A DNA stretch of 64,000 nt from a virus (IMGVR_UViG_3300025132_000023:32168-96167), one strand, 5' to 3'; shown: positions 23,936 to 31,640, numbered from the stretch's first letter. The notes: generated from the sequence alone by a model not told the origin. Numbers and translations: made by a program.

Positions 23936-24520
23936 TCTTCTGCCTCGATTAATGTCTTCATAAAGTCCTTGAAAAATTTACATTCTCCGTTTGGATGTCT
24001 TGCTGCCATAATACTCCTCCTAATTGTCGCCCGGTTTAACTTATTTAACCATTAAAACTGAAAATTTGGCCCGTCATTTATTTGCCACTTGCGATTTTTC
24101 TTTTGCTCTTTTTATCCTATTCCCAGAATAAAAATAGTTTATTGTTTATTTAACTAGATAAAAACGTATTAATCTCTTGTATCTCTTTACGCGACCCGCG
24201 ATTTATTAATAGTTAATTATGCACCTTTACCTTTAGTGCGCTCTCTCTATATGACCCATGTGCGCCTACTATTTAGAATGTGACTTGACACAATTAACAT
24301 TTTAAGCCTGTTATAACTAAACAAATCATTAGAATATTAAAAGAAAAAAATCGACCCAAAGCATATGGTCATGTAAAATACATAGACCCGTCAGGAACTT
24401 CTTCCAACAACGATAGTCGTATTCAGCGTTCAATGGAGCATAATAGTGATAGCACTTATTATTGGCCTCATTCTCTGAATACTCATCGTTTGTTTACATC
24501 GTTCCATATGGTTGTCTATT

Positions 24521-25444
24521 AGGACGTATTACGGTATTACAAGGAGTAAACGCCAGCACTTGCGCGGTGTTAATAGAACTCTATTCATAAATAGAGCCTA
24601 AGCGGTAGTTCGTAGTTAACACAGCGGCAGGGTGCTTGGTCGTTTACTTCCTTGTAATACCCAAATGTCCATATAAGACATTGCCCGATAAATGGGGATA
24701 TATGCCGTTACACTAACATGAAATGTATTCACTCCGTTGCATTGGAGAGCAAGAGTAAATTCCGGGACGTTTAGACTCTTGCTTTAGCAATCCCTGCACA
24801 TTACTCTGCTCTCCAATCCTCTACGTTTACATACATTTCATTACACTACCATATGGTTACTTAGTCATGGAGTAAGGCAAGAATGTGCGTATTCAGTCAG
24901 GCTCCTAAGAGTCTGAGTCTAAATGTGGTGAATACCGCATTCTTGCCTTACTCCGAGCAAGATAATCCCATATCGGGTTCTTTTGATTTATGGTCTGTCT
25001 CAAACAGTTCAGATGCTAATCATAAACTTTTAGCAGAGACAGTACCGCTTAGGCTGAGTCTTACGACTCCCTTATGCACGCTAACTACCTCCGGCTGTTA
25101 TCGTACCGCTAAAAGATTATGTTAACATCATCACAACTCACCAGACCTTTTCTTTTTTAATTAACAACCATATGGTTTAGTAAGTGGTTGGTTTAAGGCG
25201 GGAACCTATGTAGAATGTTAAACACGGCTGTTCTTAAGAACGAGCCTAAGCGGTAGTGTTGGAAATTCTACCGGGTTCCTCGCCTTAAGCACAACCCTAC
25301 ATAACCAGACATCGGGTAACATTCGGTTAATCCCAACATTCACTCCGTAGTATCTCCTGAACGGAACCTGTATTGACATTTAGATTAACGCTTAAGCGTT
25401 CATACTTGGTTCCCTTCAGGTTATCTCACTTCGTTCATTTAACC
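24521..25444. ncRNA. Six structured hairpin elements (E1-E6) in three convergent pairs; RNA or ssDNA structure
   Basis: Long imperfect inverted repeats with an apical mini-hairpin followed by the RRYCTAARYG motif; G-T wobbles indicate the folding strand. Confidence 0.6.
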
Positions 25445-25497
25445 TCACTACCATATGGTAGGCTGTGCTTTGCTAACAGAATGCCCGATAACGGGAC

Positions 25498-25740
25498 TTA
25501 CTTCATTGTTACGATTTTACAGCAATTACCCATTTTTACTCTTAAATCGCCTAATTCCATTCCGCAGTTATTACATATCTCAATCATTATTTTTACATCC
25601 ATTAAACCAGCACCAATAGAACGAGGAATCACATTCTTTACAATCAGGAGGGAGAGTATCTCTCATTCCTCTCCCCCCTTTTTACCAATAGCATATATTC
25701 TACAAAACTCTGCATGAGCCTTTAACAAGTTCCAACTCAT
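25498..25740 (-). CDS. Three coupled micro-ORFs: 25663-25740 (25 aa), 25580-25666 (28 aa, four Cys), 25498-25587 (29 aa, four Cys)
   Basis: Translated by hand; ATGA or 8-nt overlaps; purine-rich RBS before the second. Confidence 0.55.
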
Positions 25741-26459
25741 TCTTCTTCCCCCATTACAAGTTTAGTTGTTTCTGGGGAGCATTGATATGAAGCCTCACTA
25801 ATTATCTTCGTTTCGCAATCAACAGTATGTGTTACTTCACAAGCACTTAATTCTGTAAGGGTACTTTCTACTGCCTTGCGTATTCTTAGCATCTCTGCCA
25901 ATGGGACTTGAACAACTCTATCTTCTACTGCCTTTCTATCTGTTATTGACTCCACTTCATAAGTAATCCAAAAGGTTAGAGTGTAGGTATGACCGTAATT
26001 ATCAAGTCTTGTTAACAAAGTTACGTTATCGTCATATTTCAGCATGGCTCTACCATAAAAGGACTGTGTGCCATTAGTAGGCCCAAAGTAAATACCTAGA
26101 TATGGGCCTCTTACGCGCATCCACTTATCCATAGTCTTTGTAGTCTGAACTACGGCTACATCAGTATTAATACCATAGTCTGTCAATCCCTTCTGTGCTA
26201 GTCTTGCTTGACTACTGTAATCTAACTCCATAAGGACTTGACCGTTTTCATCAGTTACTGCATAAGTAGTGGTTGTATCGTCCGTTGATTGAAAGCCGTA
26301 TAATCTAGCATCATCCTCAGGATTATCATAGTTATAGTTACTAGTCTGTGCTATGCCTCTATCATACAACATACTCTGCACCTTATTAGGGTGAAAGTTG
26401 ACTTCTGACATATCTGTATCAAAGACTATTTCCATTTTTCTCTCATAGATAGTCATCAT
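25737..26459 (-). CDS. Hypothetical protein (240 aa) inside a TIR-flanked cassette
   Basis: ORF with GGTGA RBS. Confidence 0.8.
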   Translation of the reverse strand: MMTIYERKMEIVFDTDMSEVNFHPNKVQSMLYDRGIAQTSNYNYDNPEDDARLYGFQSTDDTTTTYAVTDENGQVLMELDYSSQARLAQKGLTDYGINTDVAVVQTTKTMDKWMRVRGPYLGIYFGPTNGTQSFYGRAMLKYDDNVTLLTRLDNYGHTYTLTFWITYEVESITDRKAVEDRVVQVPLAEMLRIRKAVESTLTELSACEVTHTVDCETKIISEASYQCSPETTKLVMGEEE

Positions 26460-26659
26460 TCATCACCTATCGCTTCAACGTAGTCTGATAGTGCAGATTG
26501 CATATCAGCCATTACTTCCTTTAGGTTATCACCAGATACTCGTAGTTTGCTAATACATAGAACAAGGGCAGACCCCGATTTCATATGCTTAACTTCTAGC
26601 ACGTATTTTGGCTCAGTTATTGGTATTGTTTCATTATTCTCGTTCATCATTTGAATCAT
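26456..26659 (-). CDS. Small hypothetical protein, probably leaderless
   Basis: ATG at 26659 coincides with the AAGAATG initiator of the cassette promoter. Confidence 0.65.
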   Translation of the reverse strand: MIQMMNENNETIPITEPKYVLEVKHMKSGSALVLCISKLRVSGDNLKEVMADMQSALSDYVEAIGDE

Positions 26660-26689
26660 TCTTATGTTGGGAGATGAATATATCAGGTG
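26657..26689 (-). promoter_or_regulatory. Cassette promoter CACCTGATATATTCA-N9-ATAAGAATG
   Basis: Same motif and spacing at 27357-27389 (-) and 27812-27844 (-); variant at 29030-29064 (+). Confidence 0.65.
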
Positions 26690-26764
26690 AGTGTTAGCAA
26701 AGCACACTACCATATGGTTTGCTTTGCGTTAAACCGGAGAGGTGGAGAGGGGCGCAAAACCCAC

Positions 26765-27304
26765 CTATTCCTCCTCATCGCCTCCGATGAAGGATACCAC
26801 AGGATAACCGTTCTCATCATAAGAACCATCCCAATGGTATTTCTTTGACATATCTCCGTTTGCGTGTGCATTGAATGCCGCATTAAGGAACAATCGCTCC
26901 TTCTTCACGCCATCCTTAGCAAAGACAGTTTCACCGTCTGTTAGGGTGTTGTAAAGAACTCCACCCGACTTACCGTGGGTTCTTGCCGTAGCATAAACCG
27001 CAGGATAAACCACATCGCGTAGGCTGATGTAAAGCGTATCATTAAGGTAAAGGTCGAAGGAAGACTTCGTTGCCGTATCCATAAGGGACTTTCGGCCCTG
27101 TCCAATGGGCGAATTTGCCACATCGGTGAATACACCTACAATGCTGTTCCAATATCTCTTACGAGTGCTTGGGTTAGCATCACCGAGAGCGAACATTGAA
27201 CGCACAATCATTGCCAAATCGCTTTGGTCTGGATTAACTGCGAACCACTCTTCAAGGTCAGTTTTCTTTGTTTCCCACTTGCTGTCATCTATTTCATTAC
27301 TCAT
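26765..27304 (-). CDS. Hypothetical protein, paralog of 29111-29620
   Basis: Shares GDxNxSTR..NSI, RxHGKSxG and WDGS with the 169-aa ORF. Confidence 0.85.
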   Translation of the reverse strand: MSNEIDDSKWETKKTDLEEWFAVNPDQSDLAMIVRSMFALGDANPSTRKRYWNSIVGVFTDVANSPIGQGRKSLMDTATKSSFDLYLNDTLYISLRDVVYPAVYATARTHGKSGGVLYNTLTDGETVFAKDGVKKERLFLNAAFNAHANGDMSKKYHWDGSYDENGYPVVSFIGGDEEE

Positions 27305-27356
27305 GTTATCAATCTCCGAAAAGGTTTGATAGGTTTGCGCCCCTAAAATTCCTCTC

Positions 27357-27389
27357 CATTATTATAATTCGGTATGAACATATGAGGTG
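27357..27389 (-). promoter_or_regulatory. Cassette promoter copy
   Basis: CACCTCATATGTTCA-N9-ATAATAATG. Confidence 0.6.
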
Positions 27390-27434
27390 TGTTTAATACA
27401 AAGTAACACACCATATGGTTTTACTTTGTGTCAA

Positions 27435-27815
27435 AAACCAGACGGGAGAATTGCTCAGATTTAAACATGGGCTAAACTACCGTGATTCCATGTCTGAGGC
27501 TTACGATTCTCCGCTAAGAGTCTGAATGGGTTTTGTTTCGTGCTTTCCTAAGGCACTCTCAGACCCGACTGAGCAAATGAAGTGGATATTGGACTCTCTT
27601 TCGATTACCAATAAAGACGCATGGGCGTTAGTTCTACATATCTTTGAGTATACAGTTCTAACCCGCGCTTACCCCGTATTACCCCGCTAAGGGTGTTGTC
27701 CTGCCTTTCCTTTGTAAGAACGACTCGGTGGCCCGCTAAGGCCCAATACGGTTGCTTTACACCCTAACGATGGTGTTATTCAGCCAATCCGTGGTGACTC
27801 GCGAAGGTCACCATT
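27435..27815 (-). ncRNA. Putative ~380-nt structured non-coding RNA
   Basis: ORF-less cassette with the cassette promoter and multiple GC-rich hairpins; strand taken from the promoter. Confidence 0.45.
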
Positions 27816-27844
27816 CTTATGATTAAGGGTGAATATATCAGGTG
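27812..27844 (-). promoter_or_regulatory. Cassette promoter copy
   Basis: CACCTGATATATTCA-N9-ATAAGAATG, identical boxes to 26657-26689. Confidence 0.65.
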
Positions 27845-27883
27845 CAATTGACACAAAGTATCACACCATATGGTTTAGTAAGT

Positions 27884-28771
27884 ATGCAAGTTAAACTTGC
27901 AAAGGGAGGGAGTTAAACTCAGGTGTAAGGGCCAAAGGCCTAATCTAAATGTTGCCTGAGTGGACTCCTCAGTTTGCAAGTTTAACGCCAGCATCTACAT
28001 AACCAGATTTGAAAATCTGGTACTGGGTTATCTTGCATCGGCTAAAGGTAGACTATGAGCAGCACGAACACTAAGGCTCGTATTCTTAGGAACACGCCTT
28101 GCTGCTACTATTCTACCTTTAGACGCTGACTAAGTAACCTTAATACCATATGGTAGTAGAAAGGTCTTTTTAGTATATTGGTGCTATAAGAATAATATAT
28201 ATGTGAGTTCAAACTCAAGCCTAAGCGTTCATATAAATTATTGTAGTTGCGTGCAACTGCCCTCTTATAGTGCGAATCTAATAAAAAGCATATAGAAGTC
28301 ATCTTTTTACGCAGTAAAACGGGGCTTATTTTTGTAGGCTTTCAAGACCCCAATTTTCTCTGGTATGGTTATCTTGCTCCGAAGTGTATTCTGTTACTTG
28401 CAGCAACCACACTCAGGCTCGTAATCTTAGGACTACGACTTGCTGCAATTAACAGCATACACTCCGTTGACTAAGTAACCTAATACCATATGGTTTGATA
28501 AAGTGGTTTGCGTTTAGACGCTAGTTTACAGACGCAAAATCTACGGTCTGGTTTAGTAACAAGAGGTCACCAAAGTGACAATCTAAATGTCTCGCCAGTT
28601 AATCAACCAGAGCGTAGAGTTTGGGGCTTAAAGTAGCGTCTAAACGCATAACCCATATCATTCCCGATAAATAGGGTATGTATTCCACATAGCGAAAGCC
28701 GAAGGAGATAAACCTATGAACACTTAGGTTCTTGTTATGACAAGCCCTATGTTCACCTCCTTCAACCTCGC
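27884..28771. ncRNA. Six structured hairpin elements (E7-E12) in three convergent pairs
   Basis: Same architecture and motif as E1-E6. Confidence 0.6.
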
Positions 28772-29029
28772 AGTTCCATCATTACCATATGGTAGTATAA
28801 TTAGAATTAGATGGGTTAATCGTATCTGTTAAAGTGTAGGATTCGGAACCCGTCCCTTGTGAATCGAATTAGCGGTCACCCGTGACCCCTGACCATTTTT
28901 CTTATTTCTCGTTTTTCCAAAACGCGATAATAACCTTAACATCCTCGCAGAAAACGGCTTGTTTTTCCTTCTCGGCCTTTCAGACCCCTGAAAAACGCTA
29001 TCATTACCATATGGTTCTGCTTTGCACGG

Positions 29030-29064
29030 AACCTCTTATATATCCGATGACTGTCCCAAGAATG
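29030..29064 (+). promoter_or_regulatory. Cassette promoter variant
   Basis: ACCTCTTATATATCC...CCAAGAATG with the same TATAT-to-ATG spacing. Confidence 0.55.
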
Positions 29065-29110
29065 CCCCCGAAACTTGGGCGCGAAAGAAAATACACATAG
29101 GTGATAAAAG

Positions 29111-29620
29111 ATGGAAGATATTGAGTGGGATTCAGTAAAGATAAAAGTAAGCACTATGCTTGAAGGTAACGCGGAAGTTGGAGACATTCCAGAAGACGTT
29201 GTTACTCTAGCACAGATGCTAATAACGACTGGTGACAATAACGCTTCAACGCGTGATTCGTTGACCAACAGCATTAAGGATATGCTAAAGCCCTACGCGG
29301 GTTATCCTTGGAAGAGAGGCAATCAGGGCATTCTACCTGCCGCAGCACGCGCAGTAGTGGATTCAGCAACTGATAACATCCGAGAGGCAGCAAGAGAGTT
29401 CTTTAACTCTACTTCGCAGTATTCTCAGCCCCTTCTACGAAAGCACGGAAAGAGCAAGGGTTCCCCTGTTTACTCCGATGCTGACGAGTATGCAAACGAA
29501 CTTGCTTCAAAGGCTCGTAAGGCTGCAACACAACTCTTCAAGGATGGAGAGTGGGATGGTTCGCTATCCGGTCTTGCTGCTTGTGCGGCTTATGACGACA
29601 TAACCACGGAGGATGAGTAA
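29111..29620 (+). CDS. Hypothetical protein, paralog of 26765-27304
   Basis: GGTGA RBS; shared motifs as above. Confidence 0.85.
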   Translation: MEDIEWDSVKIKVSTMLEGNAEVGDIPEDVVTLAQMLITTGDNNASTRDSLTNSIKDMLKPYAGYPWKRGNQGILPAAARAVVDSATDNIREAAREFFNSTSQYSQPLLRKHGKSKGSPVYSDADEYANELASKARKAATQLFKDGEWDGSLSGLAACAAYDDITTEDE

Positions 29621-29659
29621 TTCTTCCTTCGTTAACCTAAGTTTCGGGGTGCAACTACC

Positions 29660-29716
29660 GGAGGGGGGAATAGGGCTTAAAGGCCTTATTTCCCTCTCCA
29701 CTTCTTTCAGGTTTTT
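29660..29716 (+). terminator. Strong hairpin plus T-rich tract after the 169-aa gene
   Basis: GGAGGGGGGAATAGGGC...GCCTTATTTCCCTCTCC followed by T-rich sequence. Confidence 0.5.
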
Positions 29717-30139
29717 GCTGGAAGCAAAGCCCAGATAAAACCATATGGTAGTGTTTGGCTTCTTAACGGAGGGGGGCCGCGAGGGGTTCCGCACCGTTTA
29801 TATGTTCTCACGAAAGGGTATGATTGCTTTCGGCATTAGCGTTCTATTAACGCAGAAAGAACCTAATCTGATAATTCCAGTATATGAAAGGACTCAGATT
29901 TATGGTGTAAAAAGTTACTGCCGTTAAAGAGTGGGGAAATTAATAGTGGACAATGAGGCTTATATGTATAATATATCCATTATGTATATACATATCCATA
30001 TGCCATATCCTATATGATATGATAAGGGAGTCAATTTCTACAACTCATCCCCCCAAAAGTAGGCATGATATGTCATGTTTCTATTATTCTAGTGGGGGTA
30101 GAATAATGAAGTGGACATGATGTGTTAGGATATAAGTAA

Positions 30140-30217
30140 TAAGTTAATATATTATATATTATTATATTATTATTATTATTATTATACTCTCTTACTACTC
30201 CTCCTCCTCCTCCTCCT
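30140..30217. repeat. AT-rich tract with (ATT)n and (CCT)n microsatellites
   Basis: Directly visible tandem triplets. Confidence 0.85.
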
Positions 30218-30374
30218 TTCGGGGTAGGGGGGTGGAAAAACGATAAAAATAGAAAGATGCTAGAAGTGGGCATATAGTATTATCTTTACGGGAATTTGTG
30301 ATGATATTATGTTTCTATCGAAGGTGGAAAGATGGGAGAAAGATGACGAGAGCAAAGTTTTAACAGGTGACAAA

Positions 30375-31553: not shown

Positions 31554-31640
31554 TGCGGGATTCCCAAGTATGGTCAAAGGGGCCGGACTTAAGATTCGGT
31601 GCGTAGTGCTTCGGGGGTTCAAATCCCCCTCCCGCAACCA
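31554..31640 (+). tRNA. tRNA-Leu(TAA) with encoded CCA
   Basis: Acceptor stem TGCGGGA/TCCCGCA, anticodon arm CCGGA-CTTAAGA-TTCGG, long variable arm, GTTCAAATC T-loop, ACCA end. Confidence 0.92.

Follow-up and report, generated by a model that had tools for sequence, protein, structure and literature searches.

A repeated ten-base palindrome marks the junctions of a predicted array of mini transcription units in a putative magrovirus genome

The 64,000-nucleotide stretch of DNA analysed here (the window; positions 32168-96167 of the viral record IMGVR_UViG_3300025132_000023) belongs to a genome that fits a magrovirus, a tailed virus of marine group II archaea. Between window positions 24360 and 29749 it contains an array punctuated by a 10-base palindrome, ACCATATGGT. 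We propose that this central array would consist of successive mini transcription units, each of them autonomous and delimited by the palindrome, with a cargo made up mainly of structured non-coding RNA (twelve long hairpins and one manA-like RNA) besides a few small proteins. The palindrome would be the binding site of a conserved dimeric factor, either viral or from the host, which would mark and probably co-regulate the junctions. Comparison with related viruses shows that the junctions are also the places where units are gained, lost, replaced and moved. That the array consists of insulated mini transcription units, with the palindrome acting both as factor-binding junction and as crossover point, in an archaeal-virus counterpart of the promoter-plus-stem-loop cassettes (PeSLs) of T4-type phages, is in our estimate the probable reading, held with moderate confidence.

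The palindrome was found in 11 exact copies in the window, from 24848 to 29749, and in two copies with one mismatch, at 24360 and 24503, at the left end of the array. Together the 13 copies span 5.4 kb. Chance would provide 0.05 exact copies per window, and none of 100 shuffles of the window attained 11. The 8-mer CCATATGG occurs 12 times genome-wide, all 12 inside the array stretch; the inner CATATG is ordinary elsewhere in the genome, with 34 copies outside. An earlier note on this DNA had listed 11 exact and two near-exact copies, a longer palindrome around 25450 and no exact copy elsewhere. Our recount agrees: the longer palindrome is CTACCATATGGTAG at 25448-25461, the spacings of 143, 345, 319, 283, 1259, 701, 455, 280, 340, 299, 222 and 734 bp are matched exactly, and the count of the 10-mer outside the array is zero over the whole 96,167-bp genome. 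The same note held the array to be neither a CRISPR array nor a tandem repeat. With a 10-bp palindromic repeat, spacings spread from 143 to 1259 bp and intervals filled with genes, both were indeed ruled out.

More than 20 related viral contigs carry a single array of this exact 10-mer in the corresponding position. Four contigs retrieved via the 179-aa protein of the window carried 10-11 exact palindromes around the homologue of that protein. When IMG/VR was scanned for palindrome pairs spaced by 280-310 nt, 23 stretches were returned on about 19 contigs of 33-99 kb, a pair on a 367-kb contig being set aside as a probable chance pair, and a search with an alignment of the 169-aa subfamily added further contigs. 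In two relatives (L041 and L042) the cassette protein is just 28-36% identical, yet the exact 10-mer, with 8-11 occurrences, far outnumbers every other palindromic 10-mer. One stretch of 2.4-4.6 kb contains all 6-13 copies in each of four near-complete relatives (86-99 kb), genomes from which the reversed control word is absent. Copy number (4-14) and spacing vary from virus to virus. The bases adjoining the 10-mer carry at most 0.3 bit each, so that the conserved word is these ten bases alone, and its invariance across such deep divergence points to a conserved reader. A search of 185,579 prokaryote genomes for the pair pattern gave 11 scattered matches, roughly as many as chance predicts, none of them in a marine group II archaeon; BLAST of the 5.5-kb array stretch against 50,697 GenBank phage records gave no match. 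The two main publications on magroviruses make no mention of repeats, palindromes, non-coding regions or promoters of this sort and, as far as the titles of the publications tell, the 10-mer turns up in the literature only inside primers and constructs.

Every palindrome of the window and of relatives L001-L027 was read outward both ways, which gave 307 distinct flanks. Two kinds recurred, one with a CTTTG hairpin (kind A) and one with a long hairpin after 7-42 nt (kind B). In kind A, the last GGT of the palindrome opens a short stem that has CTTTG (often GCTTTGC) at its apex and ends on ACC. CTTTG was present within 30 nt of the palindrome in 116 of the 307 flanks, against 4 in a control window, and an uninterrupted GGT...ACC stem of at least 5 bp was formed in 53 of these 116, against about 12 when the 3' parts were swapped. 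Since the stem sequences differ widely, it is the pairing that is kept and not the sequence. On the promoter sides of kind A, the ACC is followed after 2-4 nt by a box resembling the archaeal B recognition element (BRE) and TATA box (ACC-N2-4-TATATAT). Such TATA-like boxes lie in the window on the left of the palindromes at 26709 and 27865 (CACCTGATATATTCA), on the left of 27410 (CACCTCATATGTTCA) and on the right of 29006 (AACCTCTTATATATCC), with AAGAATG about 14 nt past the box; in relatives an ATG often follows at a similar distance, or else a Shine-Dalgarno sequence with an ATG. On the 3' sides of kind A, the hairpin is built from T-rich and A-rich arms, such as GGTTTTT...AAAACC on the right of 27410 and on the left of 29740, or a GC-clamped tetraloop hairpin or a long T-run stands ahead of the kind-A hairpin. 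T-runs were more frequent on the incoming than on the outgoing strand (54 vs 26; at CTTTG flanks 21 vs 5), an excess that fits archaeal oligo-T termination just before the palindrome. Many junctions are composite, those of the protein and manA-like units in particular, and their predicted order would be the T-run or hairpin of a unit end, the palindrome, the covarying CTTTG hairpin, the TATA-like box and a start about 60 nt on. Neither these composite terminator/promoter junctions nor the outward-reading RNA genes described below were recognised in the earlier note.

Six intervals (in 24513-25449 and 27875-28783) contain two convergent hairpins each, which makes 12 hairpins of about 90-150 nt. 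They share a plan in which a long basal stem has at its apex a mini-hairpin of 4-9 bp, in most cases with a YNAA tetraloop; on the 3' side come an unpaired RRYCTAARYG (variants CCTTAGTG and CCTGAGTG) and then the returning strand. Two forms of the motif occur, GCCTAAGYG and TCTAAAYG, and one of each is found together in five of the six intervals. In the window and close relatives, 35 distinct motif instances were counted 40-140 nt downstream of a palindrome, and 24 of them show a mini-hairpin of 5 bp or more, compared with 9% of shuffles; in a first, unrepeated scan, 33 oriented instances pointed outward and 2 inward. All 12 hairpins fold better, by 2.4-15 kcal/mol, on the strand that leads away from the nearest palindrome. 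On this outward strand we counted 32 G·U pairs vs no A·C 1x1 mismatch and, since an A·C mismatch would be a G·U pair on the opposite strand, this marks the outward strand as RNA. For the hairpin at 24858-24972, 14 of 36 pairs are kept via double changes among three orthologues. The family was compared by scripts and by orthologue alignment, not by one covariance model; a MAFFT alignment of the apical region was ungapped, yet the loop of the mini-hairpin was displaced in it by 2-3 columns. These observations are evidence that the twelve hairpins would be RNA genes reading outward from the palindromes. The long hairpins had no match to any Rfam family at E up to 1, apart from hits to MIR5020 and a trypanosome snoRNA that were judged spurious. 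More distant relatives mostly lack this hairpin family and carry other hairpins, for instance one with a GGCATTAAGCC apex, so that the family of RNA cargo varies between magrovirus lineages. The GGCATTAAGCC-apex hairpin recurs beside palindromes of L025, L026 and L010 (e.g. on the right of L025 8076, the left of L026 1297 and the left of L010 2237).

The structures of the hairpin RNAs start about 7-42 nt from the palindrome, against about 60 nt for the manA-like and protein units. One may therefore ask whether the palindrome is itself a bidirectional core promoter, ACC-ATAT-GGT being read as BRE-TATA-BRE both ways and firing the flanking divergent RNA genes, with the downstream ACC-TATATAT boxes as a second, unidirectional copy. 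The unidirectional promoters share with it the ACC and an AT core (ACC-TCATATG on the left of 27410, ACC-ATATG in the palindrome), and strict conservation in distant relatives would fit a conserved host TBP/TFB. Four AT base pairs between CC and GG would, however, make a poor TBP site. At hairpin-hairpin junctions 43-66 bp separate the starts of the two structures, and the palindrome is roughly central, as a shared TATA box would be, but the distance from the palindrome centre to the structure is mostly 15-25 nt (range 11-41 nt), often under the usual 26 nt or so, and compensatory pairs 21-23 nt from the centre mean that the RNA includes those bases. In addition, the palindromes at 26709, 27410 and 29740, all terminator/promoter junctions, have no RNA gene starting nearby. 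We regard this reading as unlikely.

Far harder to sustain is a role of the palindrome in RNA, where an endonuclease would cut long precursors at ACCAUAUGGU between the flanking hairpins and so free the units. The single-stranded junction would then consist of two hairpins with AUAU between them, and the protein mRNAs as well as the hairpin RNAs have paired 5' and 3' ends, as processed RNAs do. Neighbouring units, however, lie on opposite strands and read away from each other, so that a precursor would hold alternate units in antisense, and the G·U pairs are confined to the outward strand. The manA-like RNA, moreover, has a TATA-like box of its own and begins downstream of it, at a distance of about 52 nt from the palindrome. 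Processing at the palindrome thus appears very improbable.

This manA-like RNA was identified by the Rfam manA model (RF01745), whose full length aligns to minus-strand positions 27813-27579 with an E value of 1e-9. Four relatives also carry it, with full-length 192-position matches of 42-54 bits (41.9-54.3); in the five viral copies, model positions 1-192 are all aligned and E ranges from 1e-7 to 4e-11. Because all scores, including the 46.4 bits in the window, lie below the gathering score of 55.2, we call these RNAs manA-like. Aligned with one another, the five copies show compensatory changes in 23 of their 42 predicted pairs. The RNA starts 52-63 nt after a palindrome in all five viruses, and in four of them an ATG stands just before the first helix. 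It begins 22-26 nt downstream of a TATA-like box, the distance of archaeal promoter geometry, which places the centre of the palindrome at about -57. In the relatives the RNA occupies L025 9507-9734, L024 6765-6998, L010 2297-2520 and L008 635-863. The manA family was described from T4-like cyanophages, two gamma-proteobacteria and marine metagenomes (Weinberg et al. 2010, PMC2864571). The viral copies resemble it in the alignment to the full model in this virus and at least four relatives, in helices kept by compensatory changes and in the marine habitat. Besides their scores, they differ in that the RNA stands alone behind its own predicted promoter and not in a 5' untranslated region (UTR), and in that the carrier is an archaeal virus. 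A motif so far tied to cyanophages and bacteria is hereby placed in viruses of archaea, and many of the manA matches labelled "marine metagenome" may come from magroviruses.

The commonest cargo across the arrays is a protein family of about 160-200 aa, referred to here as the ~170-aa family, with 24 distinct members; it occurs in almost all arrays, usually with two members per virus. Its two members in the window, of 179 and 169 aa, are 22% identical (E 2e-6). The family is characterised by an N-terminal M-E-x-x-x-W, HGKSGG, W-DG and an acidic EEE end, and is predicted confidently as five helices plus a beta-hairpin (pLDDT, the predicted local distance difference test, of 87). It had no match in Pfam, PHROGs, PDB sequence profiles or the ESM Atlas, and Foldseek against the PDB returned nothing at E <= 0.001; VIA-align gave generic three-helix matches (Z <= 6.7 over residues 1-70), from which no function was taken. 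The 5' and 3' UTRs of both window genes are complementary over about 15-25 bp (27305-27352 with 26719-26766 on the minus strand, 29058-29110 with 29621-29700 on the plus strand), the duplexes reaching -31.8 and -37.1 kcal/mol (z about -4.3). All 15 scorable cassettes of relatives likewise have UTR duplexes, of -26 to -42 kcal/mol (z -1.6 to -6.1), with a different sequence in each. Paired transcript ends therefore seem to be a general trait of the array products, hairpin RNAs included, and the predicted panhandle mRNAs of the ~170-aa family could be protected, processed or circularised. The description of most intervals in the earlier note, as either a convergent pair of hairpins or an expression unit flanked by inverted repeats, was borne out by the folding and by this UTR pairing. 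For the small protein encoded upstream of the 240-aa gene, an 85-aa open reading frame (ORF) at 26456-26713 starts inside the palindrome; the 67-aa product is more probable and fits homologues of 62-67 aa.

The array stretch is held by 24 runs. The DNA runs are all marine metagenomes, and one run is a metatranscriptome. The contigs of the latter cover, in 24000-30300, only 27575-27793 (the manA-like RNA) and 29094-29647 (the 169-aa gene), a weak hint that these two are highly expressed. The end of the first contig lies within 4 nt of the end of the Rfam match.

Comparison of arrays revealed that whole units are gained, lost, replaced and relocated, between the window and L001, L002 and L003/L004 as well as between L025 and L026. 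L002 is collinear with the window but mosaic, its units being 90-100% identical, and the hairpin at 28008-28135 is replaced, with one breakpoint at a palindrome and one in mid-unit. L001 has one unit in place of three of the window (24513-25449), two additional units that are not in the window, and a homologue of unit 24858-25166 beyond the protein cassettes, its orientation unchanged. In L003/L004 two additional hairpin units lie between the manA-like and 179-aa cassettes. Between L025 and L026, four units were lost and one changed its place. The block edges fall at window positions 24512, 24831, 25177, 25436/25447, 27874/27875, 28136 and 28484, all within 17 nt of a palindrome. A natural variant in the DNA run X11, from another marine sample, lacks exactly one palindrome-to-palindrome unit, from 28485 to 28784 (window 28455-28781), and in run X2 the hairpin at 28004-28144 is swapped for 147 unrelated bases. 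Two further joints in run X2 (26729>29739 and 27875>29664) had 21-22 nt on one side and were disregarded as likely palindrome-only matches. The modular cassette shuffling that the earlier note had put forward is thus supported by the comparison of relatives that the note had itself suggested, which shows gain, loss, replacement and relocation with block edges at palindromes.

Such exchange might mean that a dedicated, integron-like system of site-specific recombination or cleavage uses the palindrome as its core site, inserting and excising cassettes, with each insertion regenerating the site on both sides. The same exact 10-mer bounds each type of cassette with any promoter geometry and on any strand, whole-unit indels and relocations have their edges at it, and 10 shared bp are short for homologous exchange. 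The virus also encodes nucleases, of the ERCC4/XPF type and of the PD-(D/E)XK type. Searches of the complete 96-kb genome for Phage_integrase (PF00589), Resolvase and Y1_Tnp, however, gave no match, while control genomes did match. No inversion of a single unit was seen between relatives, locus orientation allowed for, though a symmetric site should permit one. Half-unit replacements have their second breakpoint mid-unit, away from palindromes. To our knowledge, a 10-bp site is also smaller than known recombinase sites. We find this explanation unlikely too. Of the roles offered by the earlier note (operator, processing site or symmetric recombination site), a dedicated symmetric site-specific system is weakened, since there is neither a tyrosine integrase, serine recombinase or Y1 HUH transposase nor an observed inversion. 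Equally unlikely is the specific form of a magrovirus cassette system on ACCATATGGT, in which a site-specific protein, possibly of the ~170-aa cassette family or a viral nuclease, would bind or cut the palindrome and insert, excise and reshuffle self-expressing RNA-gene cassettes. If true, it would amount to an integron-like mechanism in archaeal viruses, with a new family of paired-end structured RNAs as cargo.

The array sits at a divergent strand switch, the long ORFs lying on the minus strand leftward and on the plus strand rightward, and the GC skew changes sign near 28-29 kb; the strand-switch placement of the earlier note holds on both counts. At all 14 loci examined in relatives, a minus-strand arm and a plus-strand arm enclose the array, and the architecture is thus shared. 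The palindromes might accordingly be sites of a replication initiator, and the array be or contain a bidirectional origin, the site being repeated, exact and at a single locus. The array has a GC content of 0.42 (genome 0.36) and its non-coding, partly low-complexity flanks are AT-rich, with 0.33 at 23936-24359 and 0.32 at 29930-30308. When set against the archaeal origin recognition boxes (ORB and mini-ORB), AT-rich stretches do flank the array, but hundreds of bp separate the palindromes, which sets them apart from iterons or ORB clusters; they also vary in number (4-14) and spacing between relatives, and each is tied to the ends of transcription units. The skew follows the coding strand here and is therefore not independent evidence of an origin. 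We consider an origin improbable. Staged DNA entry, as in the first-step-transfer region of T5, which the earlier note had mentioned as an alternative, is disfavoured because the array lies mid-genome in a relative that is complete, with direct terminal repeats.

Several points weigh against the factor-bound junction and crossover point that we favour. The distance from palindrome to start is not fixed, and a single operator or core-promoter geometry hence does not suit all junctions. An AT-rich box lies between palindrome and hairpin in four hairpins; the others, seven hairpin RNAs being counted here, start too near for a separate TATA box. The strictly shared part is 10 bp, which is short for ordinary homologous recombination, PeSLs sharing tens of bp, and this shortness together with the lack of recombinase genes makes homologous and site-specific exchange both uncertain. 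Block edges at palindromes could partly reflect the survival of functional recombinants and not a causal site. Finally, no RNA contig lies over the hairpin units, and one small contig run cannot show starts, ends or absence; RNA run X23 had no contigs on the hairpin units and X24 small pieces only. On balance, we rank the factor-bound junction and crossover point first, followed by the bidirectional core promoter, the dedicated recombination site, the replication origin and, last, the RNA processing site.

PeSLs are promoter-plus-stem-loop cassettes of T4-type phages that cluster in hyperplastic regions (PMC2839356, PMC4122927). They are sites of ORF insertion, deletion and replacement, and mini-circles arise from them (Arbiol et al. 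2010, PMC2839356; Comeau et al. 2014, PMC4122927). Judged by sequence only, the array resembles them in its composite junctions of promoter and stem-loop or terminator, which recur in a plastic region of small non-essential genes (11 + 2 copies in 5.4 kb, with varying cargo) and make each gene an insulated unit. Endpoints of indels and replacements between related viruses fall in the junctions, as seen from the edges within 17 nt of palindromes, the relocations in L001 and in L025/L026 and the deletion in run X11. In place of the sigma-70 early promoter of a bacterial T4-type phage, however, the array has archaeal BRE/TATA-like boxes, in a genome with archaeal-type replication genes, and is therefore PeSL-like in its working but not a PeSL member. 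The core differs as well, being an exact 10-bp palindrome with little conserved flank instead of a motif of about 50 bp. Units on both strands are served by symmetric junctions, structured RNA genes make up most of the cargo, and each genome has one array, at the strand switch.

With integrons (attC, IntI) the array shares small cassettes in a row, a recurring site with hairpin-forming flanks and a content that varies between relatives. It differs from them in the lack of an integrase in a complete genome (PF00589, Resolvase and Y1_Tnp), in cassettes with their own TATA-like promoters on both strands, whereas those of integrons are promoterless and in one orientation, in a perfect 10-bp palindrome as site compared with an imperfect attC of 60-140 bp, and in its carrier, a virus of archaea. 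Early-gene modules of phages, such as the host-takeover module of SPO1 and the early regions of T4, combine repeated strong promoters with clustered short units. They too gather many short units with their own promoter and terminator in one region, but without a palindromic junction core, with protein cargo and in bacterial hosts.

Magroviruses, none of which is cultivated, rank with the most abundant viruses of the surface ocean. The palindrome would provide a conserved regulatory and recombination landmark for them, a single 10-bp word by which any metagenome can be screened. About a dozen structured RNAs, and not proteins, would take up the genome centre, and modular gene shuffling by repeated promoter/terminator junctions would be extended from T4-type phages to archaeal viruses. 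Experimental handles are gained as well, namely the palindrome for pull-downs and the predicted promoters and terminators of an uncultivated archaeal host. The features of the array are collected in the table.

Table. Features of the palindrome-bounded array, in window coordinates; RNA genes, promoter sides and unit ends are predictions
Feature	Position	Strand	Remarks
Degenerate palindrome AGCATATGGT	24360..24369		left edge of array, faces minus-strand left arm; CTTTG overlaps its outward (left) side
Degenerate palindrome TCCATATGGT	24503..24512		homology blocks with L001 and L004 stop here
Long-hairpin RNA gene	24526..24668	+	apical mini-hairpin and GAGCCTAAGCGG
Long-hairpin RNA gene	24716..24843	-	apical motif GAGTCTAAACG
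Exact palindrome	24848..24857		between two divergent hairpin RNA genes
Long-hairpin RNA gene	24858..24975	+	motif GAGTCTAAATG
Long-hairpin RNA gene	25000..25125	-	motif AGCCTAAGCGG
Exact palindrome	25167..25176		between two divergent hairpin RNA genes; edge of relocated block 24831-25177
Long-hairpin RNA gene	25184..25298	+	motif GAGCCTAAGCGG
Long-hairpin RNA gene	25340..25425	-	motif AATCTAAATG
Exact palindrome, extended CTACCATATGGTAG	25450..25459		left, hairpin RNA gene; right, 3' end of 240-aa operon
240-aa protein gene	25737..26459	-	second of two-gene cassette; homologues in cassettes of L001-L003 and L018
Small protein gene	26456..26659	-	probably 67 aa from the ATG of AAGAATG; homologues in relatives 62-67 aa
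Promoter-side junction of 67/240-aa operon	26660..26708	-	covarying CTTTG-apex hairpin, CACCTGATATATTCA (BRE/TATA-like), AAGAATG
Exact palindrome, composite junction	26709..26718		right, 3' end of 179-aa unit; left, promoter of 67/240-aa operon; CAAAG/CTTTG hairpins on both sides
179-aa protein of ~170-aa family	26765..27304	-	helical, acidic EEE tail; 5'/3' UTRs complementary
Promoter-side junction of 179-aa gene	27353..27409	-	CTTTG hairpin, CACCTCATATGTTCA
Exact palindrome, composite junction	27410..27419		right, T-run end of manA-like unit; left, promoter of 179-aa gene
manA-like structured RNA	27579..27813	-	RF01745, 46.4 bits; starts about 52 nt from palindrome
Promoter-side junction of manA-like RNA	27814..27864	-	CTTTG hairpin, CACCTGATATATTCA, AAGAATG
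Exact palindrome	27865..27874		left, promoter of manA-like RNA; right, hairpin RNA gene; block edge with L001 and L004
Long-hairpin RNA gene	27883..27996	+	motif AATCTAAATG
Long-hairpin RNA gene	28022..28140	-	variant motif GAGCCTTAGTG; unrelated sequence in its place in L002 and run X2
Exact palindrome	28145..28154		between two divergent hairpin RNA genes; block edge with L002
Long-hairpin RNA gene	28176..28278	+	motif AAGCCTAAGCG
Long-hairpin RNA gene	28363..28481	-	variant motif GAGCCTGAGTG
Exact palindrome	28485..28494		between divergent hairpin RNA genes; block edge with L001; one end of unit absent in DNA run X11
Long-hairpin RNA gene	28505..28652	+	motif AATCTAAATG
Long-hairpin RNA gene	28683..28775	-	motif GAACCTAAGTG
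Exact palindrome	28784..28793		left, hairpin RNA gene; right, unit U10; other end of unit absent in run X11
Short unit U10	28794..29005		no long hairpins; TATA-like boxes by both palindromes, internal T-runs; kept in L001-L003
Exact palindrome	29006..29015		right, promoter of 169-aa gene
Promoter-side junction of 169-aa gene	29016..29064	+	CTTTG, AACCTCTTATATATCC, AAGAATG
169-aa paralogue of ~170-aa family	29111..29620	+	most conserved cassette of the array; 5'/3' UTRs complementary
Exact palindrome, right edge of array	29740..29749		left, T-run/CAAAG hairpin end of 169-aa unit; TATA-like box toward right arm

The short unit U10 may be a candidate pair of very small RNAs, as judged from its boxes and T-runs; it also contains a UUAGCG element. 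Elsewhere in the window are genes for a family B DNA polymerase, an ATP-dependent ligase with an archaeo-eukaryotic N-terminal domain, an RFC-like AAA protein and an ERCC4 nuclease, further for a ribonucleotide reductase, a ThiF-type E1, a portal and a tail chaperone; together with the marine origin of the DNA runs, this gene set fits a magrovirus. The record (96 kb) was graded complete by CheckV.

On the right of the array, the AT-rich low-complexity stretch 29950-30220 includes one (TTA)n run, one (CTC)n run and words resembling ATATCC; with its AT-rich counterpart on the left, 23936-24359, it is a candidate for an unwinding region or an origin. The sole ORF between the last palindrome and this stretch, at 29830-29934 on the plus strand, is hydrophobic, has 34 codons, lies behind a TATA-like box and may encode a micro-protein or be the leader of the right-arm transcript. 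ARAGORN found no tRNA within the array. A tRNA-Leu gene (anticodon TAA) lies at 31554-31640 on the plus strand, 1.8 kb to the right, and L024 also has a tRNA near its own array (832-915).

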